Of a stretch of DNA of 64,000 nucleotides, positions 23,239-41,968 are shown piece after piece. Made by a program: the position numbers and the translations under genes. Every line of letters begins with the position of its first letter. Position 1 is the first letter of the stretch. The notes beneath the pieces are model-generated. The model was not told the origin of the DNA. It did no database searches and saw nothing but the letters and a program-made list of their open reading frames with translations. The DNA is taken from NCBI GenBank assembly GCA_963730185.1, contig CAVSQW010000004.1, forward strand, positions 32,001 to 96,000. Reading direction: 5' to 3'. Source of the DNA: an uncultured Gemmatimonadales bacterium. Lineage in GTDB: Bacteria > Gemmatimonadota > Gemmatimonadetes > Gemmatimonadales > GWC2-71-9.

Positions 23239-24711
23239 TTACGGGGTGGTGGCGTCGCTCGTCCCGGTCCACCGCCCCCCGATGGCCTTGTAGAGCTGGA
23301 CCGTCGCGGCGAGGTACTGCCGGCGGGCGGAGGTGAGCGCGAGCTCCGCGACGAAGAGGCTCCGTTGAGCGTCCAGCACCTCGAGGTAACTCGCGATCCC
23401 TCCCTCGTAGCGGCGTTGGGCCAGCCCGAGGGCGTCGCGGAGCGCGATGGCCTGGGTGGAAAGGGCGGCCACCTGATCGCGGTTGGTGCGGACACCAACC
23501 AGCGCGTCGGCGGTCTCGCCCATCGCGGTGAGCACGGTCTTCTCGTAGCGGGCTCGGGCCTGTTCCGCCCGGGCCCGGGCCGCATCGACGTTGGCCTTGC
23601 CGCGCCCGCCGTCGAAGAGCGGGACCGAGATGCCCAACTGGACGCCGTAGATCTCCGAGTTCTTGGTGAAGAGGTCCTTGGAGTTCGGGGTCTGGCTGCC
23701 GTACTGGCCGGTCAGCACGATCCGAGGGAGCCGGGTGCCCACCGCGAGGCCGATCCGATTGGTGGCGGCAGCCAGCTCCCGGTCGGCCCGCCGGACGTCG
23801 GGTCGCCGGAGCAGCACGTCGGCGGTCACCGAGTCGGGTACGACGACGGCCGCGACGGCGGCGTCGAGGCTGGAGCCGGTCGGAATCGGTCCCGGCGCCC
23901 GCCCGACCAGGATCGAGAGCTGGTGCTCCTTCCGGGACAGATCGCGGGTGAACTCCGCCACCCGAGCGGCCGGCGCGGCCAGGTCGGCCTCGAACTGGCG
24001 GACATCGAGCTCGGAGATGAGGCCCTGGGCGTAGCGTCGCCGGGCCAGCTCGAGCGTGGTTCGACGGGTGGTCAGCGTCCGCCGGGAAACGGCCAGGTTC
24101 TCGCGGAGCTCCAGCAGCTCGAGGTAGGCGGTCGAGACGTCCGCCACCAGGGTCAGGGCCACGGCGCGCTGGTCCTCCACCCGGGCGTCCCGGTCCGCCC
24201 GGGCGGCGCCCAGCCCGCGCCGGAGCCGGCCCCAGAAGTCGAGCTCCCACTGGAGGTCGCTCGTAACCCGGATGGCGTCGTACTTGAGGGCCCCGAACGA
24301 GCCGAACACGGCCTGCTGGGTCGAGGCCGAGCCGTTCAGGTCGATCTCGGGGAGGAGCGGGCTCCGGGAGGTGGTGACCAGGGCCCGGTACTCCCGGACC
24401 CGCGCGATGGCCTCCTGGAGGTCGCGGTTGTCGTGGAGCGCGGTCTGGACCAGGTCGACGAGGACGGTGTCGTGGATCACGTCGAGCCAGGTGGCGGCAT
24501 CGACCGCCTGGGCATCGAAGACCGGGAGCGCGCCGGCGGGCTCCGCGGCGGCCGCCCGGGTGGCCAGCGAGTCGAAGAGCGATGCCTCGGGCGCCCTCGG
24601 TGGGGCCACCGCGATGACCGTCGGCGCCACGGTCGGCGGCGAGTAGCCCGGCCCCACCGCGCAGCCGGCGGCGAGGCCGAGGGCCACCAGCGGGGAGAGT
24701 CGTCGGGTCAT
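23239..24711 (-). CDS. RND efflux outer-membrane lipoprotein (NodT/OprM family)
   Basis: Lipobox AAGC-AVGP; WELDFWGR, RRPDVR.A, YLEVLDAQR and LYKAIGG motifs. Confidence 0.93.
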   Translation of the reverse strand: MTRRLSPLVALGLAAGCAVGPGYSPPTVAPTVIAVAPPRAPEASLFDSLATRAAAAEPAGALPVFDAQAVDAATWLDVIHDTVLVDLVQTALHDNRDLQEAIARVREYRALVTTSRSPLLPEIDLNGSASTQQAVFGSFGALKYDAIRVTSDLQWELDFWGRLRRGLGAARADRDARVEDQRAVALTLVADVSTAYLELLELRENLAVSRRTLTTRRTTLELARRRYAQGLISELDVRQFEADLAAPAARVAEFTRDLSRKEHQLSILVGRAPGPIPTGSSLDAAVAAVVVPDSVTADVLLRRPDVRRADRELAAATNRIGLAVGTRLPRIVLTGQYGSQTPNSKDLFTKNSEIYGVQLGISVPLFDGGRGKANVDAARARAEQARARYEKTVLTAMGETADALVGVRTNRDQVAALSTQAIALRDALGLAQRRYEGGIASYLEVLDAQRSLFVAELALTSARRQYLAATVQLYKAIGGRWTGTSDATTP

Positions 24712-27700
24712 GAGGTCACCTCCGCCTGGCGGCGCCCTTCCGACACCCGGCGGATGGTCGCGAAGAAGAGGGGGATGAAGAAGATCCCGACCAACGTCGC
24801 GAACAGCATCCCGAAGAACACCGCCGTGCCGAGCGAGTGGCGGGAAAGGGCCCCGGCCCCGCCGGCCACCACGAGCGGCAGCACCCCCAGGATGAAGGCG
24901 AACGAGGTCATCAGGATCGGCCGGAACCGCTCCCGGGCGGCCTCCATCGCCGCCTCGCGGATCGAGGCGCCCCGGGAGCGGAGCACGTTGGCGAACTCCA
25001 CGATCAGGATCGCGTTCTTGGCCGCGAGGCCGATCACCGTGATCATCCCGACCTGGAAGTACACGTCGTTCGGCATGCCCCGGGTCCAGATCGCGAGGAA
25101 GGCGCCCAGGGCCCCGAACGGCACCCCGAGCAACACGGCGAAGGGTATGCTCCAGCTCTCGTACTGGGCCGCGAGCACCAGGAACACCAGGACGATGCCC
25201 AAGCCGAAGATCAGACCGCCCTGCCCGCTGGAGGTCTTCTCGGCGAAGGACTGACCGCTGTAGCCGTAGCCGACTCCCCGAGCGGCGAAGTCGTCCTTGA
25301 CCAGCCGCTCCACCGCGCTCAGCATCTCGCCCGAGCTGTGGCCCGGCGCCACCGAGGCGGTGATCAGGGCGGCCGGGAAGCCGTTGAAGCGGCGGACCAG
25401 GCTCGGGCCGGTCCGGAACTCGGCCCGGGCCAGGGCGGAGATCGGGATCATTTCGCCCGACGTGCTCCGGACGAAGATCCGGTTCAGGTCGTCGGGCGCA
25501 TGCCGGAACTCCGGCTGGGCCTCCGCCTGCACCCGGTAGGTGCGGCCGTAGAGGTTGAAATCGTTGATGTAGAGCGACGAGAGCATCGTCTGCAGGGTCT
25601 CGTAGAACGAGCCCAGCTCGACATGGCGGGTCTTGATCGCGTCACGATCGATGTCGAGGTAGAGGAGCGGGGCATCGACCCGGAAGGTGGTCGCGGCGCC
25701 GCGAATCGCGGGCTCCCGGTTGAGCGCCTGAATGAAGTCGTTGACCGTGCCCTCGAAGGTCCGGAGATCCTGGCCCAACCGGGCCTGGAGGTTCACCTCC
25801 AGCCCGGAGGTGAAGCCCAAACCGGTGATCTCGGGGCTGTTGAAGGCGAAGGTGATCGCGTCAGGCAGGCCGAAGAACCGGCCGTTGATCCGCTGGAGGA
25901 TCGCGTCCACGCTCTCGTCCTTGCCGCGCTCGTCCCAGGGCTTGAGCGCCACGAACATGGTGACGCTGTTGGGCTGGTTGGAGAACGACAGCAGGTCGAG
26001 CCCGACCAGGGCGGTGACCCGTTGGACCGCCGACTCGTGGAGCAGGATCTGCTCGACCTGGCTGGTGAACTCGCGGGTCCGCTGGAGCGACGCCCCGGCC
26101 GGGAGCTGGGCCGCCACGATGAAAGTGCCCTTGTCCTCGGTCGGGAGGAACGCCGACGGCACCCGGCGCTCGAGGACGACGATCAGGGCCAGAATCACCC
26201 CGAACACGGCCAGCCAGGGCCGGGGCCGACCCAGCACCAGGCCCACCCGGTGCACGTAGCCCCGGGTCATCCGGGCGAACGTGGTGTTGAACCAGGTGAA
26301 GAACCGGCCGTGCCGGGCCTTCTCGGGCGGCTCGGTGAGGAGGAGGGCGCAGAGCGCGGGCGTCAGGGTCAGGGCCACGATGCCCGACAGCACCACCGCG
26401 ATCACGATGGTGATGGCGAACTGCTTGAACATCGTCCCGGTGATGCCGCCCAGGAAGCCGACCGGGATGAAGACCGCGCAGAGCACCAGCACGATCGCCA
26501 CCAGGGCGCCCGCCACCTGTCCCATGGCCTTGTCGGCCGCCTGCCGGGCGGGGATGCCCTCCTCGGCCATGATCCGCTCGACGTTTTCGATCACCACGAT
26601 CGCGTCGTCGACCACGATCCCGATGGCCAGCACCAGGCCGAAGAGGGTCAGGACGTTGATGGAGAAGCCGAAGGCCAGCAGACCCAGGAAGGTCCCGATC
26701 ACGGACACCGGTACCGCCAGGATCGGGATCAGGGTGGCGCGCCAGCTCTGGAGGAAGAGGAACACCACCAGGGTCACCAGCAGCATCGCCTCGCCCAGGG
26801 TTTTCACGACCTCCTCGATCGAGGCAGTGATGAACGGGCTGGTGTCGAAGGAGACGGCCCACTTCACCCCGGCCGGGAAGGCGCGCTCGAGCTCGTTCAT
26901 CCGATCGACCAGCGCCTGCTTGACCGACAGGGCGTTCGCCCCCGGCTGGAGGAAGAGGATGAAGAGGGCGGTGGGCTTGCCGTTGAGCCGCCCCTCGAGG
27001 TCGCTGCTCCGCGGGCCCAGCTCCACCTTGGCCACGTCCCGGACCCGGACCAGCGAGCCGTCGGACCGGGCCCGGACGATCACCTCCCCGAACTCCTCCG
27101 GCGTCCGGAGCCGGCCCCGGGCGGTCACCGGGATGGTGAGCTCCGTTCCGGGCGGCGCCGGCTCCCGGCCCAGGCGGCCGGCCGGGGCGGTGGCGTTCTG
27201 TTCCCGCACCGCGGTGGCGACGTCGCTCACCGTCACCCCGAGCTGCGCCATCCGATCGGGATCGAGGCGGATCTGCATGGCGAACTCGGTCCCGCCGAAG
27301 ATCTGCGCGTCGCCGACCCCGGGGAGCCGCTTGATCTCGTTCTCGATGTAGAGCTTGGCGTAATTCGTCAGGAACGAGGCGCCGTAGCGGGGATCGTCCG
27401 AGGTCAGCGTCCCGACCAGCAGGATGTCGCTGTTGGCCTTGGTGACGATGATGCCGTTCCGCCGGACCTCCTCGGGGAGCTGCGGCTCGGCCAGCTTGAT
27501 GGCGTTCTGCACCTCGACCGCCGCGAGGTCCTGATTGCGGGACACGTCGAAGAACGCCTGGAGGGTCAGGGTCCCGTCGCTGCCGTTGGACGAGTTGAAG
27601 TAGAGCAGGCCGGACAGGCCGGACAGCTGCTGCTCGATCGGCGCCGCCACCGCCTGGGCGACGTCTTCCGCGGTGGCGCCGGGATACACCGCGTTGACCC

Positions 27701-27878
27701 GGATCGAGGGCGGGGTGATCGAGGGATACCGGTTGACCGGCAGGTACCGGATCGAGAACACGCCGAGCAGGGTGATGACGATCGAGATCACCGCCGCGAC
27801 GACCGGGCGGCGGATGAAGAAGTAGCGAGGCTCCCCCGGCGGAACCGGGCCCGAGGAGAAGGGCGACTCGCCGCTCAC
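24708..27878 (-). CDS. HAE1 family RND efflux permease (AcrB/MexB-like)
   Basis: FFIRRPV, GIVVDDAIVVIEN, AKNAILIVEF and RFRPILMTS motifs; 1056 aa. Confidence 0.96.
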   Translation of the reverse strand: MSGESPFSSGPVPPGEPRYFFIRRPVVAAVISIVITLLGVFSIRYLPVNRYPSITPPSIRVNAVYPGATAEDVAQAVAAPIEQQLSGLSGLLYFNSSNGSDGTLTLQAFFDVSRNQDLAAVEVQNAIKLAEPQLPEEVRRNGIIVTKANSDILLVGTLTSDDPRYGASFLTNYAKLYIENEIKRLPGVGDAQIFGGTEFAMQIRLDPDRMAQLGVTVSDVATAVREQNATAPAGRLGREPAPPGTELTIPVTARGRLRTPEEFGEVIVRARSDGSLVRVRDVAKVELGPRSSDLEGRLNGKPTALFILFLQPGANALSVKQALVDRMNELERAFPAGVKWAVSFDTSPFITASIEEVVKTLGEAMLLVTLVVFLFLQSWRATLIPILAVPVSVIGTFLGLLAFGFSINVLTLFGLVLAIGIVVDDAIVVIENVERIMAEEGIPARQAADKAMGQVAGALVAIVLVLCAVFIPVGFLGGITGTMFKQFAITIVIAVVLSGIVALTLTPALCALLLTEPPEKARHGRFFTWFNTTFARMTRGYVHRVGLVLGRPRPWLAVFGVILALIVVLERRVPSAFLPTEDKGTFIVAAQLPAGASLQRTREFTSQVEQILLHESAVQRVTALVGLDLLSFSNQPNSVTMFVALKPWDERGKDESVDAILQRINGRFFGLPDAITFAFNSPEITGLGFTSGLEVNLQARLGQDLRTFEGTVNDFIQALNREPAIRGAATTFRVDAPLLYLDIDRDAIKTRHVELGSFYETLQTMLSSLYINDFNLYGRTYRVQAEAQPEFRHAPDDLNRIFVRSTSGEMIPISALARAEFRTGPSLVRRFNGFPAALITASVAPGHSSGEMLSAVERLVKDDFAARGVGYGYSGQSFAEKTSSGQGGLIFGLGIVLVFLVLAAQYESWSIPFAVLLGVPFGALGAFLAIWTRGMPNDVYFQVGMITVIGLAAKNAILIVEFANVLRSRGASIREAAMEAARERFRPILMTSFAFILGVLPLVVAGGAGALSRHSLGTAVFFGMLFATLVGIFFIPLFFATIRRVSEGRRQAEVTS

Positions 27879-29071
27879 GACGCCCCTCCGGCCGCCGTGC
27901 TGTCCGCGCCGGGCTCGGCCTTGGCCGGCGTCGGCTTCGCCACGCCGCCGGGACGGACCTTCTGGAGGCCGTCGACGACCACCCGGTCACCGGGAGCGAG
28001 CCCCTCCTCGATCAGCCACTCGTCGCCGACCCAGGCGGTCGCCTTGACGTCGCGCGCCACCACCGTATCGCCGGCGCCGAGCAGATAGACCGACTGTCGC
28101 CCCAGCTGCTGTTGGACGGCGCGCTGCGGCACCAGGATGGCGCTGTCCCGGACCAATCCCTCGAGCCGGACTCGAACGAACTGGCCCGGAAGCAGCAGAC
28201 GCTTCGGGTTCGGGACCCGCGCCCGGAACTCCTGGGTGCCGCTGGCCGGGTCGATCACCGGCTCCACGTAGTCGAGCTTGCCCTCGGTCGGGGTCAGCGT
28301 CCCATCCGGCAAGATGATCCGGATCCGCGCGGACCCGCCGGGCCGGAGGGCCGCCACCGCCTGGGGATCGCGACGCCAGTGAAGGGTCTGCTGATTCGAG
28401 GGCCGGAAGGTGACCCGGACCGGGTCCAGCGCGTCGATCGTGGTCAGCAGGTCCGCCGGTCCGGTAACCCGGGCCCCCCGCACCAGGTTGGCCTTGCCGA
28501 CCCGCCCCGCGATCTCGGCCCGGACGGTCGCGTCCTTCAGGTCCTTGGCGGCGCGGTCCACCGAGGCCTGCGCATCCTCGACCGACGCCCGCGCTTGGGC
28601 CTCGGCGGTCTCGGCATCGTCCACGTCGCGCTGGGCCACGGCGTGGTCGGCCAGCAGGGGGCGGAGCCGCTCCATCGTGCGGGTGGCGTTCCGGAGGCGG
28701 GCCTCCGCTTCGGTCTGACGAGCCTTGGCACCGCGAAGCGTGGCGTCGTAGCTGGTGGGGTCGATCCGGAAGAGCACGTCGCCGACCGCGACCTCGGCCC
28801 CTTCGCGAATCGGCTGGGCCACGATCACCCCCGCCACCGGGGAGCGGACCTCCACCCGGCGCATGGCCTCGACCTGGCCGGCGAACTCGGCGACCTCGTT
28901 CACCCGCCGGGGCTGGACCGCCACCACCCCCACCGTCGGCGGCGGTAGCGGGGGCGGTTGGGGAGCGTTGCAGGCCAAGGCGACCATCACCGTGCCCGCC
29001 GCCGCGATTCGGCGGAACGACGTCAGCCAACCGCGCGAATCCGCCCTTGCCCCCGATGTCGCCACAGCCAC
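27875..29071 (-). CDS. RND efflux periplasmic adaptor (AcrA-like)
   Basis: Lipobox ALAC; EVRSPVAG, LFRIDP, LLPGQFVRV and GDRVVVDG motifs. Confidence 0.93.
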   Translation of the reverse strand: MAVATSGARADSRGWLTSFRRIAAAGTVMVALACNAPQPPPLPPPTVGVVAVQPRRVNEVAEFAGQVEAMRRVEVRSPVAGVIVAQPIREGAEVAVGDVLFRIDPTSYDATLRGAKARQTEAEARLRNATRTMERLRPLLADHAVAQRDVDDAETAEAQARASVEDAQASVDRAAKDLKDATVRAEIAGRVGKANLVRGARVTGPADLLTTIDALDPVRVTFRPSNQQTLHWRRDPQAVAALRPGGSARIRIILPDGTLTPTEGKLDYVEPVIDPASGTQEFRARVPNPKRLLLPGQFVRVRLEGLVRDSAILVPQRAVQQQLGRQSVYLLGAGDTVVARDVKATAWVGDEWLIEEGLAPGDRVVVDGLQKVRPGGVAKPTPAKAEPGADSTAAGGAS

Positions 29072-29110
29072 CTCGCCCGCTGGTATGAAGGACCTGTTAT
29101 TGAGGGGCGC

Positions 29111-29139
29111 AAATAATTGGCTGGCCGTTCAATTGTCAA
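29111..29139 (-). promoter_or_regulatory. Promoter of the RND operon (TTGACA -35) with TetR-like operator AATTG-N10-CAATT
   Basis: TTGACA on the - strand at 29139-34; inverted repeat at 29115-29134 in the spacer; AT-rich -10 region. Confidence 0.6.
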
Positions 29140-29188
29140 GCAGGTACCAGTGCCCGGGGGCGGCGGCCGGCTCGGGGGTGCCGACCGG

Positions 29189-29599
29189 TCAGAAGCGGCC
29201 GCCGATCACGGGCAGCTCGCGCCGCCGGATCACGATCACGATCAGCGCCGACACCAGCACCGTCACCGCCATGCCGAAGAGGAGCCCGCCGTCGCCCTGG
29301 ACGTCGATTCCGAGCCGGGTCAGGTGGGCCCCGATGGCACCCACCATCAGGCCCAGGGCCAGGACCGCGCCCACGGCCGGGGTCTTGGGGTAGACCAGCA
29401 GCAGGGCCGTGATCAGCTCGAGGATTCCGGTGCCGATCCGTCCCCAGGGCTCGACGCCCAAGGTGGAGAAGATGTACTTGGCTTCGGGGGCGCCGGTGAA
29501 CTTGAAGAAGAGAGTCTGGGCCAGAATCACCGCGGCGAGGAGCTGGAAGATCCAGCTCGCCACCAGGGCGGGTTTGCTCGGCGCGACGGGTGCGGACAC
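29189..29599 (-). CDS. DoxX-like membrane protein
   Basis: QTLFFKF, EPWGRIGTG..EL and GAI..HLT.LGI motifs; strong AAGGAGGT RBS before GTG. Confidence 0.85.
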   Translation of the reverse strand: MSAPVAPSKPALVASWIFQLLAAVILAQTLFFKFTGAPEAKYIFSTLGVEPWGRIGTGILELITALLLVYPKTPAVGAVLALGLMVGAIGAHLTRLGIDVQGDGGLLFGMAVTVLVSALIVIVIRRRELPVIGGRF

Positions 29600-29617
29600 G
29601 GGACCTCCTTGCTGGGG

Positions 29618-32260
29618 TCAGGCCGCCTCCACGTGGGCCCGGCCGGCCCGGCGGTGGCGACGCATCAGATCGAACAGCCCACGGAGCGGGGTGGGGGTGG
29701 CGCCGGCGACCCGGTTACGGGTCCCGATCTCGAAGAGGAGTGCCCACTGCCGGAACAGCACTCGATAGGCCCGGAACAGCGAGTTGGCCGGATCGTAGAT
29801 GCTGGTCGCTTCGGAGGTGGCGCCGTTGAGCTCCAGGATCTTGAAGCTGTCACCCCGGCTCAACGCCTCGTACGACGGCGCTCTGATGTCGTAGCGCCCG
29901 AACCAGAACCCATCGTAGGTCCGGCTCACCTCGTCGATCGCGGCCTCGAGGGCCGGCGTTCTGACCCGCTCACCCTCGAAGAACGCCGCCCCCCGGCAAT
30001 GGGTTCCCAACTCGGCCAGGGGGACGATTTCGCCCGCCGCTGGGACGCTGGCCAACCGGGACGCATGATGGGTGAGAAAGAACCGGGCCATGCCGACCGC
30101 GCGGTCGTCGGTCAGGATCAGTTCCTCCAGCGACCGGACCCCGTCACCGGTGACGGCGGGGAGCCGCTTGTCGGTGAGGGCGAAGAGCCGGCCCCGCTCC
30201 TCACCGGGGATCCGGTAGTAGAAAATGCCCATCTCGACGCCGGGCACGTACTCCTGGATCAGCACCGGCTCGACCGCCCGGGCGAGGTAGGCCTCCGCGG
30301 CGGCCAGATCCCGAACGATGGCCACTCCATCGCCGCGCTCGCCGACGTCGGGCTTGAGCACCACGGGAAAGTCGAGCCGGTGCTCGGTCAGGAAGCGTCG
30401 GACCGCCGCCACCCGTTCGGCGAGCGATCCGCCGGGCGGCAGGAGACGCCAGCGGGCCACCCGGTCGCCGGCGCCGTCGAGCCCGCGAAGGATCTCCGCC
30501 TTGGACTCGCCCACGAAGCCGCCGCCCGGGATCGCCGGGTTGGCCGCGGTCCAGACCGTCAGGCTCCGGTGCTTGAGCGCCAGCCAGAGGACGTAGAGCA
30601 CCACCGGTGGATAGAAGGCCCAGCGGGGCCAGTATTCCCAGCGGGTGAGCCGCCGCCAGCGGGAGACCAGGAGCCGCCGGCCCCGCCAGGAGCAGAGCGG
30701 GACCACCAGCTTGACCACGATCAGGAGCAGGAGCGCCACCCCGAGCAGGGTGGGCATGGCGAATCGCTGGTAGGCCGTGAACCCGGCGAGCACCCGACTT
30801 CCGAAGAGGGCGCTGGCGCCGACCAGGGCGGGCGTCCAGAGCGCCGCCGCGAGGACGAAGACGCCGAGGAAGGCGAGCGCCCGGGTGTGGAGGATGCCGG
30901 CCGTCAGATAGGTCGGGAGGCGGGTGCCGGGCACGAACCGGGTCAGGAGGGCGATCCAGGCCCCATAGCGGCGGAACCAGGCCGAGCTCCGGTCGATGTC
31001 GGCGTCACTGACCAGCCAGCGGAGCGGCGCCCGGCGGACGGCCGGCCGGCCGATCCAGCGCCCGGCCGCGAAGAGCAGGAGGTCGCCACCCACGATCCCC
31101 ACCGCGCACGCGGTGGTGCCGGCCACGAACCCGAGGGAACCCCGGCCGATCAGGAGCCCGGCGGCGATGCAGGCCAGGTCTTCGCTGACCAGCGTCGCCA
31201 CGGCCAGGAGCACCAGCAGGATGCTCAGCGCGAGCCCGGCGACCGGCGGAATGACCCGGGGGTCGAACGGCCGGGCCGCCGCGGCCAGCCGGGCCGGGTC
31301 GGCGGTGGCCCGGGTTATGGCGGTGCCCTGGTCGACCGAGTCGAGGAACCGGTCGACGACCGGGGCGAGCTCGGACGCGCGGGCGAAGGCCATGAAGTGG
31401 TTGGCTGCCGGATCGCGAAACATCACCAGCTCGCTCTGGGGGAGGAGCCGGGCGTGCTCAGCGGCGATCGCGGGCTGGACCAGCGGGTCCCGGTCGCCCT
31501 GGATGATCAGCGCCGGTCCGCCGAACCGGCTCAGGATCCCGCGGAGCGGCCGTTGGTCGGAGTCGTAGAAATTCCGGGCATACTCCACGTTCAGCATCCC
31601 GAAGAGCCCGCCGTCGGGGGCGCCGACGTGGGGAACGGCTTCGCGGAGGAGCCAGAGCCCGGCCAGCTGGAGCCCGTGAATGGTGTGGTTCAGGTAGTAG
31701 TCGCCGAGGAGCTCGTATTCCTGCGCGCCGATGGCCGAGAGGAGGGTGAGCGACTCGATCCGGTCGGGCGCCAGTCCCGCCATGCTGATGGCCACCCCAC
31801 CGCCCATGCTGAAGCCCAGCACGTTGGCCTTCCGGATCCCGAGCGAGTCCATCAGCTCGAGCACGTACCGGGCGTGGGCCAGGAACGAGTAGTCCGGGAC
31901 GTCGTGGGTGGAGCCACCGAACCCGGGCAGGTCGGGCGCGATGGCCCGGCGCCGGGCGCCGAGCAGGTGGGTGAGCTGGGAGACCTCGCGGTTGGAGCCC
32001 GGGCTCCCGTGGAGCAGGATGATCGGAGTCCGGTCGTCGGCGCTGTCGGCGCTGTCGGGCCGAACGTCGAGGAAGGCGAGCCGGACCGTGCCCGCCACCA
32101 CCTTCGCCCCCCGCACCGCGCCGACCGGCACGACCCGTTCGGTCGGGCGGGGTGTCGGGACGAACGGGTGGGCCGAGCGCCACAGGTGTGACAGCGCGAC
32201 CAGGACGGCCCAGACTCCCACGACCCATCGGAGCCAATGGCGCCGGGGCCGGCCGGTCAT
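29618..32260 (-). CDS. Triple fusion: alpha/beta hydrolase + DedA/VTT membrane domain + ATP-grasp (D-Ala-D-Ala-ligase-like) domain
   Basis: Hydrolase: HGSPG, GFSMGG, GDRDPLV, ANHF. DedA: ATLVSEDLACI, RFVPGTRLPTY. ATP-grasp: LKPDVGERG, IQEY, FGRYDIR, ILELNG. Confidence 0.85.
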   Translation of the reverse strand: MTGRPRRHWLRWVVGVWAVLVALSHLWRSAHPFVPTPRPTERVVPVGAVRGAKVVAGTVRLAFLDVRPDSADSADDRTPIILLHGSPGSNREVSQLTHLLGARRRAIAPDLPGFGGSTHDVPDYSFLAHARYVLELMDSLGIRKANVLGFSMGGGVAISMAGLAPDRIESLTLLSAIGAQEYELLGDYYLNHTIHGLQLAGLWLLREAVPHVGAPDGGLFGMLNVEYARNFYDSDQRPLRGILSRFGGPALIIQGDRDPLVQPAIAAEHARLLPQSELVMFRDPAANHFMAFARASELAPVVDRFLDSVDQGTAITRATADPARLAAAARPFDPRVIPPVAGLALSILLVLLAVATLVSEDLACIAAGLLIGRGSLGFVAGTTACAVGIVGGDLLLFAAGRWIGRPAVRRAPLRWLVSDADIDRSSAWFRRYGAWIALLTRFVPGTRLPTYLTAGILHTRALAFLGVFVLAAALWTPALVGASALFGSRVLAGFTAYQRFAMPTLLGVALLLLIVVKLVVPLCSWRGRRLLVSRWRRLTRWEYWPRWAFYPPVVLYVLWLALKHRSLTVWTAANPAIPGGGFVGESKAEILRGLDGAGDRVARWRLLPPGGSLAERVAAVRRFLTEHRLDFPVVLKPDVGERGDGVAIVRDLAAAEAYLARAVEPVLIQEYVPGVEMGIFYYRIPGEERGRLFALTDKRLPAVTGDGVRSLEELILTDDRAVGMARFFLTHHASRLASVPAAGEIVPLAELGTHCRGAAFFEGERVRTPALEAAIDEVSRTYDGFWFGRYDIRAPSYEALSRGDSFKILELNGATSEATSIYDPANSLFRAYRVLFRQWALLFEIGTRNRVAGATPTPLRGLFDLMRRHRRAGRAHVEAA

Positions 32261-32994
32261 CAAGCGGGCTCGCCCCGGCGGGGAAGGGAGAGCGTGGTCA
32301 CCGGGCCGCCCTCGCAGGGGGCGCCGTCCACGTGGGCGAGCTGGACCTGGTGGGTCTCGACCGTGACGACCGTGTATCCCCGGGTTGCCGCCTCGGGCCG
32401 GTGCATGCACACCGAGAAGGGCCCCCGCTCGGGGTCGTGGCTCCGGTGGAACCGATCGAGCCGATCGCGGGTGACCGGGCCGTCGCCCAGCATCGCCCGC
32501 CAGGCCGCGCTCCGCGCCCGCTCGGCCTCGGCCTGATCGCGGCCCGAGCTGGTCCGGATCATCCCGGGCGTCTCCACCAGCGCGCGGAGCAGCAGGGCGC
32601 CGGTCCAGTCGGTGAGCAGGACTTCGCGGCCGGGGTCGACGGCGGCCAGGGTGAACGGCTGATACCGACCCAGCGTGGCTGGCGCCAGCCGGTCGATGGC
32701 GCGGCCGGCCGTTCGGGCATCGAGCAGCGAGCGAACCAGGAGGCCGCGGCTCACCCGGTTGGGTTCTGGATCGGGCGGCGACTCGGCGTACCGGTTGAGG
32801 AGCGCGATGGTGACCCCGTACTCGTTGACCCCGATCCAGGTACCGCCGAAGTCGCCGTCGGTGGGGGCGAGATAGGCTACACCCTCGCGCTCGCCCCGCG
32901 TCGGCGGCAGGGCAGGGGCCCGGGTCAGACGCTCGTCGCGGTTGAAGTAGAGGGCGTAGCCGTCGGGCTCACCGAGCCAGCTCAGAGTACACAC
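32260..32994 (-). CDS. NRDE/TANGO2 family protein (Ntn-hydrolase fold)
   Basis: GTG-Cys-Thr start; NRDE, GGTWIGVNEYG and SRGLLV motifs. Confidence 0.9.
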   Translation of the reverse strand: MCTLSWLGEPDGYALYFNRDERLTRAPALPPTRGEREGVAYLAPTDGDFGGTWIGVNEYGVTIALLNRYAESPPDPEPNRVSRGLLVRSLLDARTAGRAIDRLAPATLGRYQPFTLAAVDPGREVLLTDWTGALLLRALVETPGMIRTSSGRDQAEAERARSAAWRAMLGDGPVTRDRLDRFHRSHDPERGPFSVCMHRPEAATRGYTVVTVETHQVQLAHVDGAPCEGGPVTTLSLPRRGEPA

Positions 32995-33509
32995 TACCGC
33001 TCGGCCCGAGCGTGCGCCTGGGTCGAAGGGGCCACGCCGAAGTCGGGGCCGAGGGTCACCGGCTCGTCGGCCAGGAGGAGCTTGATCAGGGCGAAGTGAT
33101 GCACGGTATGACTCACCAGAAACTGGATCTCGCGGGCCACCGTGGACCGCGACCACTCGGGCTCGGGCGCGTCGACGGCGGTCCGGAGCTGGACGGCCAC
33201 CGGCCGATCGGGCTCGATGCCTTGGAGCGAGGCCAGGCCGTCGAGGGCCTCGCGGGTGGCTTGGGCGGCGCGAGTCGGGTCCTGCTCGAGCCGGGCGTCG
33301 CGCCGCCGGGCATCGTAGTCTATCGCCCCGGTGGCCACCCCGGCCAGGAAACACTGATAGTGCTCCACCACGTGCCGGTACTGCGCCCCGACCGGCGCCC
33401 AGCCGCCCCGGTGGGCCGCGTACCGCTCCGGAGACAGCGCGACCAGCAGGGCGAGGGCCTGTTCCAGGAGCAGGCGATTGGCGTCGAGGCCGGTTTCCAG
33501 CGGGTTCAT
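32994..33509 (-). CDS. DinB/YfiT-like protein
   Basis: GAQYRHVVEHY, IDYDARRRD and REIQFLVSHTVHHFALI (conserved His) motifs. Confidence 0.82.
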   Translation of the reverse strand: MNPLETGLDANRLLLEQALALLVALSPERYAAHRGGWAPVGAQYRHVVEHYQCFLAGVATGAIDYDARRRDARLEQDPTRAAQATREALDGLASLQGIEPDRPVAVQLRTAVDAPEPEWSRSTVAREIQFLVSHTVHHFALIKLLLADEPVTLGPDFGVAPSTQAHARAER

Positions 33510-34363
33510 GCGCTCTCCACGGTTCCGGCCCGGGCCGACTCGAGGCGGCGGGCCATCAGCGATCGGGCCCGCGCCGCCAACGCGCTCCGGTCGTCGGCGA
33601 CGAGGCCCTCGGGCTCGAAGGTGACGGTAGCATGGAACCCGGGCAACTGACAGAGCCCGAGCACGTGGGGCACGAACGCCATGTCGCCCCACCAGCACAC
33701 CGCGTCCCGCGCCGGCGGCGAGCCGGCGGGGGTCTGATAGCGGATCGTGGCCACGCGGACCGGCGATCCGGAGCGGACGGCCCACTCGAAGAGCGCCGGC
33801 CGCAATTGAGAAACGTCGTCACCGTGGGAGCTGGTTCCCTCGGGGAACACCACCACGCCGAGCCCCCGGGCGACGCCCTGGTCGATCGCGTCGAGGACCC
33901 GGATGGCGTCGCGCGGGCTCGACCGGTCCAGGAATATGGTGCCCACCAGCCGGGTCAGATACCCGACGATCGGCCACTGGTTGAGCTCCCGCTTGGCCAC
34001 GAAGACCACGTCGACCTGGCTCATCAGAAGCACGATGTCCACGTAGCTCAAGTGGTTCGCCACCAGGAAGAAGGGCGGTTCCGGCACCGGCCCTTCGATC
34101 GTGACCCGCATGCCGACGGAGCGGCTCATGCCCCGGGCCCAGAGCCGTGCCATCCGGGCCAGCCACCGCTGCCGGGCCCGGGCCCAGGGCGTCAGGATGC
34201 CGATCCCGACCAGCGCGACGGTGAGGCACCCGGTGGTCCACCAGCTCATCAGCAGGAGCCGCCAGAACGGCCGGACCGAGCCGGCGCGGATGAGTCCCGC
34301 CAGCTCGGCCGGGAGGCTCTGGCCGAGCACCTCACGGCGGATCTCCGAAGGGGCGTCGCTCAC
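33506..34363 (-). CDS. Lysophospholipid acyltransferase (PlsC/OlsA-like)
   Basis: NHLSYVD, FVAK, GTIFLDR and FPEGT motifs; also CWWGDM.F..H. Confidence 0.92.
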   Translation of the reverse strand: MSDAPSEIRREVLGQSLPAELAGLIRAGSVRPFWRLLLMSWWTTGCLTVALVGIGILTPWARARQRWLARMARLWARGMSRSVGMRVTIEGPVPEPPFFLVANHLSYVDIVLLMSQVDVVFVAKRELNQWPIVGYLTRLVGTIFLDRSSPRDAIRVLDAIDQGVARGLGVVVFPEGTSSHGDDVSQLRPALFEWAVRSGSPVRVATIRYQTPAGSPPARDAVCWWGDMAFVPHVLGLCQLPGFHATVTFEPEGLVADDRSALAARARSLMARRLESARAGTVESA

Positions 34364-35184
34364 CGGAAGAAGGTGCGGAAGGTCGCCGGGTCGATGGTCC
34401 TCACGTCGAGCATCACCAGCCAGTCGATGGTCTTGAACAGGGGATCGATTGCCGGCGGGCCGGCCACCTTCGCTCCGAGCGCCAGATAGGTCTGGAACAG
34501 CGCCGGGACGTGCGGCTCGGGCAGCGGGGCGTCCGGATCGGCCACCGCGCACCGTCCGGCCGGGCGGGGCTGCACCCCGAACCGCTCGTCCACCGCGCCG
34601 ATCCGCTCCAGGTGGCGGTGGACCGAGACGCCGACCGCCGGATCCATGCTGTTGACCGAACAGCAGCCGAAAAGATAGTGCTTCCGGTTCCAGGTCAGGT
34701 AGGAGGCCAATCCCCGCCAGAGGAGGTGCAGCACCCGGCCGTTCCGATGGGCCTTGGCCACGCAGGCCCGCCCGATTTCGACGGCACCCCCTTCGACGTC
34801 GGCGGGGAGGCCGCTCAGATCGAACTCGCCGTCCGAGTAGTAGCCGCCGCCTTCGCGGGCCATCTCGGCGGTCTGCATCCGGTAGGTCCCCACCACCTCG
34901 GTGCCGGAGCGGTCGAGGATCATCAGGTGGTGGAAGCGCTGATCGAGGTCGTCCTCGTCACGGCCGTTCTGATGCGAGCTGTCGAGGCCTTCGCCCAGCT
35001 CCAGGTTGAAGACCTCGTAGCGGAGCCGGAGGAGCCGGTCGAGGTCGGCCGCGGTGCGGGCGAACCGGACCAAGTAGTTGCCGGCCTCGAGGTGGAGATC
35101 CGGCAGGGCGTCGGGCGCGATCGGGTACTCGGCCGTGGCGGGCTCGAGACTCCGGATCGAACGGCGACGGATGGGCTCGATCAT
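34360..35184 (-). CDS. GNAT-fold N-acyltransferase (OlsB-like N-acyl amino acid synthase)
   Basis: RLRYEVFNLEL, DEDDLD, VVGTYR, EFD, EIGRACV..HRNG, LW.GL, FGCCS and GPPA.D..F.T.D motifs. Confidence 0.88.
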   Translation of the reverse strand: MIEPIRRRSIRSLEPATAEYPIAPDALPDLHLEAGNYLVRFARTAADLDRLLRLRYEVFNLELGEGLDSSHQNGRDEDDLDQRFHHLMILDRSGTEVVGTYRMQTAEMAREGGGYYSDGEFDLSGLPADVEGGAVEIGRACVAKAHRNGRVLHLLWRGLASYLTWNRKHYLFGCCSVNSMDPAVGVSVHRHLERIGAVDERFGVQPRPAGRCAVADPDAPLPEPHVPALFQTYLALGAKVAGPPAIDPLFKTIDWLVMLDVRTIDPATFRTFFR

Positions 35185-36962
35185 GCGGCACTCCGGAGCG
35201 AAGAAGGATCGGCTTCGAGGAGCCAGAGGTCGCCGAGGCGGGCGACCCGGCCGGTGACGGCGACCGGCCGTCCCACCCAACGCGCGAGGCCCGCGATCGG
35301 TTGCCCGCGGCGATCGACCAGGAGCAACTCCAGCCGGTGGCCCTGCTCGTCCCGCACCACCAGCATCGGAGGTAGGCCGCCCGCCACGCAACGCGCGGCG
35401 CACTCCCGGTGGGTCTTGCCCTCCCCCGGGTTCATTACCCCCAAGTAGCACTTGCCGTCCACGATCTCCCCTACGAGATCGAAGGTACCGAGGTTCTGGG
35501 GCGCGGCGGCGGGCGCGGCCGGCTCGGGACGGGGCGCCGTGCCGCTCACCTCGAGCAGGGTCAGCCCGTCGCGATAGGCCAGGGTACCCCGGAGCACCGC
35601 GCGGCGGCCGTCGAGCGGCCCGGCGATCGCCTGGGCGCCGTGCTTGCCGGCCGCCGCCAGCAGATAGCGGCTGACCCGTTCGCTGCCGGGCCGCTGAACT
35701 TCGAGGAGCGGGTAGGGGGCGGTTCGAACCGTGCCGATCAGCTCCGTCGGGTGGCCGTACTCGAACGTTGCCGGCGCGAAGCGATCCTGCGCAAGAGCCA
35801 AGACGCCCACGATGGCTCCGACCAGTACCAGAGCGGCCACGACCAGGTGCCGGGTGAATCGGGCCAGCCCGGTGGGGGCGGTGGGCACGTAGCCGACGTA
35901 GAACTCGTCCCGGCCCGCGGGCGCGGACGGGGACGAGGGGGCGGCCACCGGCTCGACCCGGGTTCCGGGGGCGTTGGGGATCCGATGCACCAGCACCCGA
36001 TCGCCGGCCAGGCGGAGGTTGAAGGTGGGAATCCGGTCGTCGAACGGCGGCGGCGCGGTGCCGCTGTCGGGGCGATACTGGTAGCCGTGCCAGGGACAGG
36101 TGATGCAGCCATCGACGATCCGGCCTTCGCCCAGGGGGCCGTTCTGGTGCCGGCAGACGTTGGAGACCGCCGAGAGCCGGCCCTCGTGCCGGAACACCGC
36201 GACCCGCTCGCCGCCCACCACGCCGACGATGGCGCGGCCCTCGGGGATCGAGGCGGCCGAGCCCACGTCCTCCCAATCCTGGTCCGGCGCCCCCTCGCGA
36301 TCGCGGGCCCGCTCCCGGAGGGCCGCGGCCAGGTGCAACCCCCCGATCGCGACCGCGCCCAGGGCGAAGGGCGCGGCGTACCACAGGCTCCGCTCATCCT
36401 GAAGCACGCCCAGCCCCACGTGGCCGAGGAGCAGCAGGTAGGCTGGGTACACGAGGAGGTGGAGCCGCTTCCAGGCCGGCGGGGTGAGGACCGAGAGCCA
36501 GTAGTCGTGGCTGGTGGCGGCCATCAGGACCAGGATCACCAGCGCGCCGAGGCCCAGCAGCTCGAACGGAAAGCCGCTCACGCTGGTCCAGCTCCGATTC
36601 GAGATCAGCACGCTCACGAGAGGGTTCACGTTGCCGAAGGCGTGGAACTGAACCAGCGCGAACCCGGCATGCGCCAATGCCAGGAGCGCCATGGCGATGC
36701 CCAGGTGGCGGCGGTTGTAGAGCAGGGGCAGAAAGCGCCGGTCCAGGCGAGCCAGCGGGCCGATGGCGAGGATCAGGTGGAGCAAGACGATCCCCGCGAG
36801 GCCGAGCCCCCGGATCAGGATCGTCTCGGCGGTGGCGTCGGGGTGGGTGAGCGCCGTGAGGCCCCCGAACCACGCCACCAGGCCGACCGCCGTGACCCCG
36901 AGAACCGCGTCGTAGATCCGCTTCTGACGGTTCCAGTTGACGGCCCGGTAGGCGACGCTCAT
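35181..36962 (-). CDS. Ferric-reductase-like (MsrQ-type) heme-b membrane domain + Rieske [2Fe-2S] + C-terminal Cys/His domain fusion
   Basis: RRHLG, AHA, ATSHD and WKRLHLLVY; Rieske CRHQ...CPWHG; a further TM helix, then C-x12-H-x2-C-x3-C. Confidence 0.85.
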   Translation of the reverse strand: MSVAYRAVNWNRQKRIYDAVLGVTAVGLVAWFGGLTALTHPDATAETILIRGLGLAGIVLLHLILAIGPLARLDRRFLPLLYNRRHLGIAMALLALAHAGFALVQFHAFGNVNPLVSVLISNRSWTSVSGFPFELLGLGALVILVLMAATSHDYWLSVLTPPAWKRLHLLVYPAYLLLLGHVGLGVLQDERSLWYAAPFALGAVAIGGLHLAAALRERARDREGAPDQDWEDVGSAASIPEGRAIVGVVGGERVAVFRHEGRLSAVSNVCRHQNGPLGEGRIVDGCITCPWHGYQYRPDSGTAPPPFDDRIPTFNLRLAGDRVLVHRIPNAPGTRVEPVAAPSSPSAPAGRDEFYVGYVPTAPTGLARFTRHLVVAALVLVGAIVGVLALAQDRFAPATFEYGHPTELIGTVRTAPYPLLEVQRPGSERVSRYLLAAAGKHGAQAIAGPLDGRRAVLRGTLAYRDGLTLLEVSGTAPRPEPAAPAAAPQNLGTFDLVGEIVDGKCYLGVMNPGEGKTHRECAARCVAGGLPPMLVVRDEQGHRLELLLVDRRGQPIAGLARWVGRPVAVTGRVARLGDLWLLEADPSSLRSAA

Positions 36963-37426
36963 CGGGGCCCTCCCCTCGGGCGGAGCGGGGTGACGGCTTC
37001 GACCCGACCTGGCCCGTTGCTCCAGAGTATGGCCGTCAGCCTCCCACTCGGGAGCCGAAGCCGCTCGGAGACGGCGCGAGGCGCGCCGACCGCGCCGACC
37101 AGGATGGCGTCCGCGGGAAGCCCGCCGGTGCTCGATACGCCCGGGGCCAGGTAGAGCAGGGGGTCGGCCGCCCGGATCGGAAACCGCGGTCGGGTGGTCA
37201 CCACCGTCTCCCCGGTGGCTGGGTTGCCGGCGAGCGACACGATGAGCGGGAAGGTCGAGTCGGCCACCAGGTCGTCGGTCGCAGGGTCCGAGGTGCCGGG
37301 AAGGACGGCGACCACGAGCCGCGACGGATCGGGTCGGGCGGCGAGCGCCCCGAGCACGATGGTCGGCCCGACCGTGACCAACGCCACCGACCAGGCCAGG
37401 TGCCGTCGTCGGAGCCTTCGGATCAT
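36959..37426 (-). CDS. Hypothetical membrane-anchored protein
   Basis: MIRRLRRRH, one TM helix and 'ADPLLY' soluble domain; ATGA overlaps at both ends. Confidence 0.7.
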   Translation of the reverse strand: MIRRLRRRHLAWSVALVTVGPTIVLGALAARPDPSRLVVAVLPGTSDPATDDLVADSTFPLIVSLAGNPATGETVVTTRPRFPIRAADPLLYLAPGVSSTGGLPADAILVGAVGAPRAVSERLRLPSGRLTAILWSNGPGRVEAVTPLRPRGGPR

Positions 37427-37695
37427 CCGGGCGGCCTGGCTCGGGCGGCGTCGCGATGGGCGTCGTGCGGCTCGGGCGGGGCTGGGCCTCCGCGGGACAC
37501 CCGCCACACGATCGCCGGCCAGAGCAGCGCGGCGCCGGGCACGATCAGGAGTCGAAAGCCCCAGGTCCCGTGGCCGGCCGCGGGATCGAGCCGACCGGCC
37601 CCACGGAACGCCAGCCACGCCGCGCACCCGGCGCCCACCGCCAGGTAAGCCGCGGTGAGGAGGACGATGGTGGAGGCGGTCTGGATCGCGGTCAT
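37423..37695 (-). CDS. Small 2-TM hypothetical protein
   Basis: AAYLAVG...RLDPAA..GTWGFRLLIVPG.ALLWP; ATGA overlap with the next gene. Confidence 0.72.
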   Translation of the reverse strand: MTAIQTASTIVLLTAAYLAVGAGCAAWLAFRGAGRLDPAAGHGTWGFRLLIVPGAALLWPAIVWRVSRGGPAPPEPHDAHRDAARARPPG

Positions 37696-37890
37696 GTGAG
37701 AGTCCCAATCTCTGGTTCGGCGGGGGCTTTGGCCAGACCGGACATCCAAGGAACGCCGTCGGCGGGTGTTCGGTTCCGAGGCGGGCCGCCGCGGGTGGGC
37801 GCTCCCGCCATCCGGGGGATCGGGCCGCTCGCGGGTCGATCTCGGCGGGCGGCGAGGCCGACTAGTATTCGGGTGGAGGAAGGGCATCAG

Positions 37891-40592
<2,702 letters not shown>

Positions 40593-40596
<4 letters not shown>

Positions 40597-41456
40597 CCTT
40601 ACCCAGCGAGACCGGCATTCCCGTTGCGTCCACCTTCATCGATCGCCCGGCCCCTCGGCTGCTCGCGGGCCAGAACGTCCTGGTGACCGGCGCCAGCTCG
40701 GGCATCGGCAAAGCCGTCGCCTTCGCCATGGCCTCCGCCGGCGCCGACGTCTGCGTCAACTATCCGGTCGAGACCGAGATGGCCAAGGCCGAAGGCGAGG
40801 TCGAGGAGATCAAACAACTGGGTGGCCGGGCCTGGGCCCACCAGTGCGACGTCTCGAAGGAGGACGAGGTGATCGCGATGTTCGACCGGATTCGTCGCGA
40901 GATGGGCACGGTCGACATCGTGGTGGCCAACGCCGGGATCCAGCGCGACGCGCCGTTCCATGAGATGACCCTCGACCAGTGGAACCGCGTGCTCGCGGTG
41001 AACCTGACGGGCCAGTTCCTGTGCATCCGCGAGGCGGTCAAGGAGTTCCGCCGGCGCGGCTTCCGGGACGTGTCACGCGCGCTGGGGAAGGTGATCTGCA
41101 TGAGTTCGGTCCACGAGGTGATTCCCTGGGCCGGGCACGTGAACTACGCCGCGTCGAAGGGTGGGGTGATGCTGATGATGAAGAGCATCGCCCAGGAGGT
41201 CGCGCCCCAGAAGATCCGGGTCCTCGCGGTGGCCCCCGGCGCCATCCGGACCCCGATCAACAAGGACGCCTGGGATACCCCCGAGGCCCTGAACAAGCTG
41301 CTCACCCTGATCCCGGCCAAGCGGATCGGCGAGACCGAGGACATCGCCCGGACCTGCGTCTGGCTGGCCTCGGACGAAGCCGACTACATCACCGGGACGA
41401 CGCTCTTCGTCGACGGCGGGATGACCCTCTACCCGGGCTTCGAAGCCGGGGGATGA
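40593..41456 (+). CDS. Glucose 1-dehydrogenase-like SDR oxidoreductase
   Basis: TGASSGIG, NAG, SSVHEVIPW, YAASK and DGGMTLYPGF motifs. Confidence 0.92.
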
Positions 41457-41621: not shown

Positions 41622-41638
41622 CATAATTCGACATTATG
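41622..41638 (+). promoter_or_regulatory. CATAAT-N5-ATTATG operator overlapping a -10-like box and the padR start codon (probably leaderless)
   Basis: Perfect 6-5-6 palindrome; no Shine-Dalgarno before ATG 41636. Confidence 0.6.
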
Positions 41639-41968
41639 CGCGATCGCCCCTCGCTCCCGCCCCTCTCACACCTCCAGGCGCTGGCCTTGGGCCTGCTCCG
41701 ATCGGGCGACCGACCAGGCCGGTTGGTGCGAGAGGCGATGGCCGGCTACGGCGTTCGCCATTCCGCGGCCGCGTTCTACCAGATGATGGCCCGCCTCGAG
41801 CGCGACGGGTTCGTCACCGGGCGCTACGAGGCGGTCTGGGCCGGCGACCAGGAGGTGACCGAGCGGTGGTACCTGCTGACCGCCGCCGGTGAGCGGGCGT
41901 GGCAGCGCACCCAGGCCTTCTACGAAGCCATCGGCCGGGCAGCCGACGAGGGCTATTCACCTGCCTGA
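41636..41968 (+). CDS. PadR-like transcriptional regulator
   Basis: LSHLQ..LGLL, FYQMMARLERDG and WYLLTAAGE motifs; directly upstream of an ADOP permease. Confidence 0.8.
   Translation: MRDRPSLPPLSHLQALALGLLRSGDRPGRLVREAMAGYGVRHSAAAFYQMMARLERDGFVTGRYEAVWAGDQEVTERWYLLTAAGERAWQRTQAFYEAIGRAADEGYSPA

Follow-up and report, generated by a model that had tools for sequence, protein, structure and literature searches.

We describe a nine-gene operon (g1 to g9) on the minus strand of a 64,000-nucleotide stretch of DNA, here called the window, from an uncultured Gemmatimonadales bacterium (assembly GCA_963730185.1, contig CAVSQW010000004.1, positions 32,001 to 96,000). The operon probably encodes an unrecognised way of modifying amino-acid membrane lipids. 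We lean, by somewhat more than an even chance, towards a pathway in which the OlsB-like and OlsA-like enzymes g4 and g5 make an ornithine-type lipid, the ATP-grasp ligase domain of g8 extends its head group, the DedA domain of the same protein flips the product, and the hydrolase domain of g8 together with the NRDE protein g7 reverses or remodels the modification. An earlier note on this DNA had proposed that the operon builds a diacylated lipid with an extended head group, possibly sulfur-containing and redox-cycled, and then flips and remodels it. That interpretation is partly upheld: the genes are one unit, they are tied to aminolipid synthesis, they include an amide ligase and they have a redox link.

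All nine open reading frames (ORFs) are open at the coordinates in Table 1 and have a coding-type composition (G+C content at third codon positions, 0.86–0.93). Neighbouring genes overlap by four bases (ATGA at 37423–26, 36959–62, 35181–84 and 33506–09; GTGA at 34360–63) or by a single base (32994, TAG/GTG; 32260, TGA/ATG), and the DoxX gene g9 is preceded by an 18-nt gap carrying AAGGAGG. The ORFs, the seven overlapping junctions and the gap thus confirm the tightly packed operon described in the earlier note. Its count of nine holds as the total including DoxX, that is, eight overlapping genes and DoxX, and not as its wording read, with DoxX following nine overlapping genes. The domains it had assigned agree with our Pfam and NCBIfam profile searches of g1–g9.

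Table 1. Coordinates of the operon genes and of the promoter motif in the window.
Feature	Position	Strand	Basis
Extracytoplasmic function (ECF)-sigma-type promoter motif GGAAC-N17-CGTT	37752..37777	-	82 nt upstream of g1 start
g1, 90 aa, two hydrophobic segments, without family; opens the redox module	37423..37695	-	ORF, Pfam/NCBIfam, neighbourhoods
g2, 155 aa, N-terminal membrane anchor and outer domain	36959..37426	-	no Pfam/NCBIfam family
g3, 593 aa, MsrQ-like heme-b domain, Rieske [2Fe-2S] domain, helix and C-terminal Cys-His domain	35181..36962	-	Ferric_reduct and Rieske profiles
g4, 274 aa, OlsB-like N-acyltransferase (GNAT)	34360..35184	-	Acetyltransf_5 PF13444, E 1e-28; best NCBIfam OlsB
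g5, 285 aa, OlsA/PlsC-like O-acyltransferase	33506..34363	-	Pfam Acyltransferase; best NCBIfam OlsA
g6, 171 aa, DinB-superfamily protein; counterpart of VCA0649	32994..33509	-	DinB_2
g7, 244 aa, NRDE/TANGO2, predicted Cys-Ntn amidase/acyltransferase; counterpart of VCA0648	32260..32994	-	TANGO2/NRDE PF05742
g8, 880 aa, serine hydrolase-DedA/VTT-ATP-grasp; counterpart of VCA0651 and VCA0650	29618..32260	-	Abhydrolase_1, VTT (DedA) and weak RimK-type ATP-grasp
g9, 136 aa, DoxX-like membrane protein	29189..29599	-	DoxX_2

In g8 an N-terminal helix is followed by the serine hydrolase (S151, D258, H288), the DedA/VTT domain (E360, D361, R441, R447) and, at about residues 531–880, the ATP-grasp domain (K587, K636, E676, R789, D791, E810, N812). 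The ATP/Mg-binding residues K636, D791, E810 and N812 are kept in 148–149 of 149 ligase homologues. The predicted local distance difference test score was 92.4 for the g8 model and 90.6 for the ATP-grasp domain model, and the folds nearest to this domain were those of CphA1, GshAB and CphA2 (TM-score 0.4–0.54; 18–21% identity; E ~1e-11 for the best matches, CphA1 and GshAB). It shares its ATP-grasp fold and insert with the cyanophycin synthetase G domain, CphA2 and GshAB, its top fold matches, whereas g8 has no partner Mur or GshA domain and carries a membrane anchor and the DedA fusion instead. CphA/GshAB-type ligases activate a peptide-like carboxyl group and then add an amine; a carboxyl of this sort is present in an N-acyl amino acid. 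The proposal that this domain forms amide bonds is supported, as its fold and conserved residues are those of an intact ligase of the CphA/GshAB type. Vibrio homologues are labelled D-Ala-D-Ala ligase (Ddl) in databases; we rejected this function, since no Ddl model was among the Pfam or listed NCBIfam matches and Ddl was not the nearest structure.

A hydrophobic helix lies before the ligase domain and is present even in its stand-alone forms. The DedA/VTT domain scores 56.1 with PF09335 (cut-off 33.9) and keeps the acidic pair and the R-F-x-P-x-x-R motif. From the g8 model, the positive-inside rule and the known topology of DedA proteins, the ligase is tentatively placed in the cytoplasm and the hydrolase in the periplasm; this topology is uncertain, as the N-terminal helix was not picked out by the hydropathy scan as spanning the membrane. 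The serine hydrolase keeps its full triad, and PlaF, a membrane phospholipase, ranked sixth among many similar fold matches. Since OlsI provides a precedent (PMC12493201), the hydrolase could also acylate.

The other enzymes encoded beside the ligase also have intact sites. In g7 the N-terminal Cys2 is found in 67 of 68 homologues, and N18, R19, D20 and E21 in 65–67 of them. The three-His metal site of g6 (H46, H134, H138) is invariant in 72/72 homologues, and so is H92 of g9 in 41/41. TANGO2 has been proposed to be a Cys-Ntn hydrolase for fatty-acid derivatives (PMC13044924) and binds acyl-CoA (PMC11867700), and a role in heme was reported for a Shewanella homologue (PMC10470608). Shewanella HtpA/SO0126 was considered as a parallel and set aside, as its gene sits in another context.

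The acyltransferases tie the ligase to aminolipids. Like the OlsBA pathway of Sinorhizobium, Rhodobacter and Brucella, the operon couples a GNAT (PF13444) N-acyltransferase to a PlsC-family O-acyltransferase with an H-x4-D motif (H104-x4-D109 in g5), and OlsB and OlsA are the best NCBIfam matches. It differs from OlsBA in that both proteins score under the curated cut-offs and are embedded among seven other genes, none of which is listed among the Ols enzymes in the available parts of the Ols reviews. Only one gene of the g4 type was detected in the host genome. For neither g4 nor g6 was a solved structural relative found by sequence. Judged by family, g4 and g5 would work like OlsBA and would make an ornithine-type lipid.

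The same tie is seen in other bacteria. Apart from two seed genomes, which the counts exclude, an OlsB- or OlsF-type gene adjoins the ligase gene in 11 of 16 Acidobacteriota, 6 of 15 Planctomycetota and 7 of 9 Pseudomonadota loci, as well as in 1 of 5 plasmid loci. In one Vibrio-type genus 57 of 121 genomes also have the ligase, and OlsF adjoins it in 23 of 27 Vibrionaceae loci (20 of these 57 hits and 7 earlier loci). NCBIfam confirmed the OlsF or OlsB label in five test cases. A quick tree of 62 ligases accounts for the OlsF label with no fewer than three changes, which means that synthases of more than one type have partnered the ligase. The link to aminolipid synthesis that the earlier note had drawn is thus supported by partners of two kinds, OlsB/OlsA here and, in Vibrionaceae, OlsF, the type to which the proven ornithine-lipid synthase VCA0646 belongs.

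We also examined how far the gene set as a whole is conserved; kinship among genomes inflates every co-occurrence count given here. Among named relatives, those closest to g8 are Gemmatimonadota records, and full-length g8 was found in 22 of 60 relatives (17/21 within the genus, 5/15 in other genera of the family, 0/24 in two other families). The order g1-g3-g4-g5-g6-g7-g8 is retained in 12 of 20 Gemmatimonad loci, and the OlsB-like g4 is present in 18. Most of the remaining loci are cut by contig ends or have no g1–g3 beside the operon, and two begin inside it; locus L052 is on the same contig as L001. Further away, relatives of the ATP-grasp domain number 2945 when counted as 50% clusters, and the ligase was detected in 9/401 Pseudomonadota, 16/151 Planctomycetota and 17/151 Acidobacteriota genomes. 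Across 80 metagenome and 5 plasmid loci, many of them short, we counted DedA in 61, DinB in 38, NRDE in 35, the hydrolase in 35, g4 in 23, DoxX in 21 and g3 in 10–11. Several metagenome loci (e.g. L080, L098, L102, L115 and L127) contain the same parts in a different order and on different strands. The ligase thus occurs with the same partners, shuffled, in Gemmatimonadota, Acidobacteriota, Planctomycetota and Pseudomonadota. The neighbourhood check suggested in the earlier note shows homologues co-occurring in other genomes, which supports a single functional unit: the gene set is a real unit and not a chance grouping, and g1–g3 and DoxX are accessory to it rather than core. We also noticed a stand-alone ligase (L054:6926-8011) on conjugative Komagataeibacter plasmids, amid transposases and arsenic and copper genes. 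Paracoccus denitrificans PD1222 (PDEN_RS24485) and a Marinomonas also carry the ligase.

The best-studied counterpart is vca0651–vca0646 of Vibrio cholerae. Locus L199:2516-7797, which is of the V. cholerae type, has the order DedA, ATP-grasp, DinB, NRDE, YHS, OlsF. Of the published primers, the one for the start of VCA0646 and the pair for the VCA0649 promoter match it (one of the pair with a mismatch), and those for the end of VCA0646 and for VC0489 gave no match. The ATP-grasp domains of g8 and of this counterpart are 38% identical. Both operons have orthologous DedA, ATP-grasp, DinB and NRDE parts beside an aminolipid synthase, and the V. cholerae genes shift together; the operon in the window differs in having OlsB and OlsA instead of OlsF, a DedA-ligase fused with a serine hydrolase, no YHS gene, and g1–g3 in addition. 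Ornithine lipid is the product of VCA0646 in E. coli and, when salt is low, in V. cholerae itself (PMC12186959). Mashruwala and Bassler found that HapR activates vca0646–0649, that overexpressed vca0646 and vca0647 kill cells and that deletion has no effect; they described these as four genes of no known function (10.1101/2024.09.23.614608; PMC11573629). For VCA0647 conflicting results on the type VI secretion system have been published. In the available parts of these papers a function is given for VCA0646 only, and vca0650–0651 were left out of the tests (PMC12186959, PMC11573629).

In the supplementary table of the hapR RNA-seq comparison, whose rows we assigned to genes by order and description, the ligase gene changes by +1.28 (false discovery rate, FDR, 0.016), the DedA gene by +0.76 (FDR 0.096) and the other four by +1.41 to +1.62; the DUF3069 gene upstream of them stays flat. 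In the iurV mutant all six genes fall, by -2.0 to -2.9 (PMC7600106 table). The published four-gene operon vca0646–0649 is a six-gene unit that includes the ligase and DedA genes. Our literature search, which covered papers outside subscription, found none that assigns the gene set to a pathway. The statement in the earlier note that no characterised pathway combines these parts holds for the pathway within that literature; it does not hold for the genes, as part of the orthologous operon (vca0646–0649) has been studied.

On these grounds the pathway may run as follows. In a first step ornithine, or an amino acid like it, would be N-acylated by g4 and the resulting lyso-lipid O-acylated by g5, chemistry that has been demonstrated for OlsF, which replaces g4 and g5 in V. 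cholerae (PMC12186959). The cytoplasm-facing ATP-grasp domain of g8 would then phosphorylate the free carboxyl of the lipid with ATP and join a second amine to it by an amide bond (this amine might be an amino compound containing sulfur), and the DedA domain would carry the product to the outer leaflet. There the periplasmic serine hydrolase and the Cys-Ntn NRDE protein might strip or swap acyl chains or the added residue, and DinB might treat the head-group substrate at its metal site. Finally, g1–g3 and DoxX would form an accessory trans-membrane electron chain, in which electrons pass from the Rieske centre via heme b to the periplasmic Cys3-His site; by its genome profile this chain depends on the ligase pathway, and it probably keeps the product or a partner in the right redox state.

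Two known systems offer comparisons. In MprF/LpiA with the AcvB/AhyD hydrolases, a cytoplasmic lipid-aminoacylating domain is likewise fused to a flippase and an outer hydrolase reverses the reaction. MprF, however, uses aminoacyl-tRNA and a GNAT fold to form an ester on phosphatidylglycerol, whereas g8 combines an ATP-grasp ligase with DedA, so that the likeness is one of analogy only. Pfam and NCBIfam placed neither a tRNA-dependent GNAT synthase family nor an MprF flippase family on g8, and membership of MprF was rejected. The operon may be stress-induced and may work in the style of MprF but with ATP-grasp chemistry. The second comparison, made from described chemistry, is with the cerilipin synthase and the serine step of flavolipin, where an amide bond is also formed onto an aminolipid carboxyl. 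The transfer of taurine to ornithine lipid, which yields cerilipin, is ATP-dependent and its gene is unknown, and for the flavolipin serine step the part of a 2026 review available to us names no enzyme (PMC12971839).

Several observations weigh against the proposed pathway. Both acyltransferases fall below the NCBIfam cut-offs (g4 with OlsB NF052554, 128.7 bits of 350; g5 with OlsA, 120.2 bits of 300), although the proven VCA0646-type protein likewise misses the OlsF cut-off (434 of 620), which softens this point as a weak test. No Ols gene lies within ~7–10 kb of the ligase in 4/5 plasmid, 2/9 Pseudomonadota, 8/15 Planctomycetota and 5/16 Acidobacteriota loci. In E. coli, OlsF (VCA0646) alone gave unmodified ornithine lipid; low salt induced the promoter directly before vca0646 and not the fusion before vca0649; polymyxin resistance was restored by vca0646 alone; and the available text reports no modified lipid for V. 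cholerae (PMC12186959). Synthase and ligase can thus be separated, OlsF acting alone and from a promoter of its own. The best 120 matches of the acetic-acid-bacterium ligase homologue name Komagataeibacter, Novacetimonas and Gluconacetobacter; no Gluconobacter is named among them, most being without a name, and the link to cerilipin is without direct support.

Some of these points also favour another explanation, which we regard as unlikely but deserving of attention: the ligase may make a soluble dipeptide or amide, later acylated by OlsB or OlsF, or modify a protein or carrier, or the module may act on a non-lipid envelope substrate (undecaprenyl-linked or peptidoglycan-related) and merely share a stress regulon. 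The many ligase loci without nearby Ols genes and the separate promoter of vca0646 would be expected, the DedA domain matches models of the undecaprenyl-phosphate transporter UptA, if below the cut-off, and D-Ala-D-Ala ligases rank in the fold search below CphA and GshAB. This explanation accounts poorly for the repeated pairing of the ligase with two different synthase types, the translational coupling, and the presence of membrane domains and a lipase-like hydrolase in one protein with the ligase.

The redox module was characterised in a similar way. The six-helix, MsrQ-like heme-b domain of g3 has invariant H86, H98, H168 and H181, the Rieske ligands C270, H272, C289 and H292 are invariant, and so are C505, H518, C521 and C525 of the C-terminal domain, which belongs to no family and is predicted to be periplasmic. 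By predicted topology the Rieske domain is inside and the Cys-His domain outside; an Atlas search with the latter returned only unnamed or DUF5666-named clusters. In relatives g3 is often split into two genes, g1 precedes g3 in 28 other loci, and the outer domain of g2 is absent from about half of the relatives. The set of relatives with g3 proved identical to the set with g8 (22 of 60); in four members the two genes are on different contigs. All 11 g3 genomes among 151 Acidobacteriota fall within the 17 ligase genomes, and 10 of 12 among 151 Planctomycetota within the 16 (~1.2 expected in each case; kin are not independent), often with g3 and the ligase at unlinked sites. Since g3 genomes nest within ligase genomes, g3 nearly always needs the ligase, and not the reverse.

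Upstream of g1, at a distance of 61–106 nt, GGA[ATG]C-N17-[CA]GTT is present in 13/13 Gemmatimonad loci (0.28 expected) and its strict form in 8/13 (0.01 expected). We take GGAAC-N17-CGTT to be a putative ECF promoter of the SigH/SigR-like kind. In genome-wide scans spacer 17 was not enriched (16 sites vs 20–61 at other spacers; in a second scan 6 vs 2–15), and therefore only sites kept in orthologues were accepted. One such site, GGAAC-N16/17-CGTT, precedes the gene of an MsrP/sulfite-oxidase-family molybdoenzyme (G000:C3:69757-70377, L216) in 11 of 12 same-genus loci, counting its own locus and intact 5' ends only and leaving out one truncated locus, and in 0 of 9 others. A second VTT gene (G000:C13:47197-47868; site kept in 1/4 orthologues) and a copper ATPase (C14:83603-85870; own site not kept, five other matches being a different element) were rejected as regulon members. 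A promoter-like match also lies before a gamma-glutamyltransferase gene (C7:540030-541739), and in L041 and L049 a gene for an ECF sigma factor, a candidate regulator, adjoins g1 on its upstream side in divergent orientation. Another dyad is seen in Vibrionaceae, in 20 of 27 loci (vs 1.6; the pattern was drawn from the same sequences). Control by a Pho box was rejected there, as the best match to the Pho-box consensus had 4–6 mismatches, no better than shuffles, in 27/27 loci. A SigX consensus was not found in the paper examined.

The conserved ECF-type promoter before the operon and the MsrP-like gene supports a redox or sulfur link. The likeness to MsrPQ lies in the MsrQ-like opening domain of g3 (NF003831, E 3e-6) and in the MsrP-like gene with the common promoter. 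The scores are far under the cut-offs (26.8 of 130; 50.4 of 207), g3 adds the Rieske and Cys-His domains, and the MsrP-like protein has no twin-arginine (Tat) motif in its first 40 residues and is unlinked to the operon; the pair was thus rejected as MsrPQ. In the iurV mutant of V. cholerae the genes that fall alongside the operon include msrB, thioredoxin 2, glutaredoxin, a predicted ferric reductase, cpxP, ompU, copper genes and an ECF sigma. The redox component suggested in the earlier note is thus backed by the g3 profile, the common promoter and co-regulation with msrB, thioredoxin and glutaredoxin.

These results bear on a special case of the proposed pathway, a lipid-anchored redox buffer analogous to glutathione or mycothiol, which seems to us rather improbable. 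Here the ligase would add cysteine, methionine or another thiol or thioether, DedA would display the product in the periplasm, DinB would be an S-transferase, NRDE a conjugate amidase, and g1–g3, DoxX and YHS the reductase. DinB proteins form a superfamily of thiol S-transferases, GshAB is among the nearest ligase folds, and the YHS partner belongs to a Cys/Sec family; the dependence of g3 on the ligase, the promoter common to the MsrP-like gene and the thiol-redox genes of the iurV set point the same way. Yet a profile search did not find g3 in the 9 ligase loci of Pseudomonadota, families that lack the operon also have the MsrP-like gene, and the iurV set, with cpxP, ompU and copper genes, may reflect a general envelope response. 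A shade less probable is its fullest form, in which ornithine lipid joined to a sulfur amino acid is flipped, redox-cycled by the heme-b/Rieske/Cys-His chain and served by a DinB S-transferase and a TANGO2-like conjugate amidase, as a membrane-bound counterpart of glutathione in at least four phyla.

There is only a small chance that g1–g3, instead of recycling sulfur, are a membrane oxidoreductase that feeds hydroxylation or desaturation of the aminolipid (OlsE/OlsC-like) or one that serves a copper site. A gene for a Rieske and NADPH-FMN-reductase fusion follows the operon, after DoxX, in many relatives (L033, L037, L039, L040, L041, L045, L051, L052 and L185), a fatty-acid hydroxylase resembling alkylglycerol monooxygenase is near it in 5 loci, the C-x3-C and His pattern resembles that of copper chaperones, and the V. 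cholerae operon changes expression together with copper genes. However, with these queries the bacterium's own 82%-complete genome yielded no Rieske-FMN reductase and no YHS, the match before the copper ATPase is not conserved, and the Cys-His domain is outside by topology, away from cytoplasmic hydroxylases. That an ordinary olsBA drifted into an unrelated stress operon of nine genes without a common pathway is highly improbable: every part has free-standing relatives and g2, g9 and g1–g3 are variable, but the content is conserved, though shuffled, in four phyla, OlsBA is replaced by OlsF, and g3 depends on the ligase at genome level even when unlinked.

Aminolipids with two-residue head groups are known, and for modification of this kind the ATP-grasp family offers a concrete candidate for the missing class of amide ligases; its homologues, which number in the thousands, are annotated without a function or as D-Ala-D-Ala ligases. 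What had been "four genes of unknown function" in V. cholerae is reframed as a six-gene lipid unit, and TANGO2, whose substrate is open, gains a bacterial context. What is added here is that g3, in an electron-transfer chain (g1–g3) of no family that tracks the ligase across phyla, is almost confined to ligase genomes, even when unlinked, and that the operon shares an ECF-type promoter with an MsrP-like gene.

At the 3' end of the operon (28900–29800) neither a sigma-70 promoter nor a terminator was found, and no RNA elements were listed for the window. An RND efflux set (membrane fusion protein, permease and outer-membrane factor; 23239–29071, minus strand) begins ~120 nt past DoxX on the same strand; this adjacency is not kept in relatives. 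On the other side, a divergent glycoside-hydrolase-like gene (37886–40596, plus strand), presumably of the GH63/MGH1 type, has its middle (~38800–39100) in another frame owing to two compensating frameshifts, possibly assembly errors. It is followed on the plus strand by an oxidoreductase of the short-chain dehydrogenase/reductase family (40569–41456) and by a PadR regulator and then an ABC permease (41636–44624). A comparable glycoside-hydrolase-like gene is divergent to the operon in loci L181 and L182.

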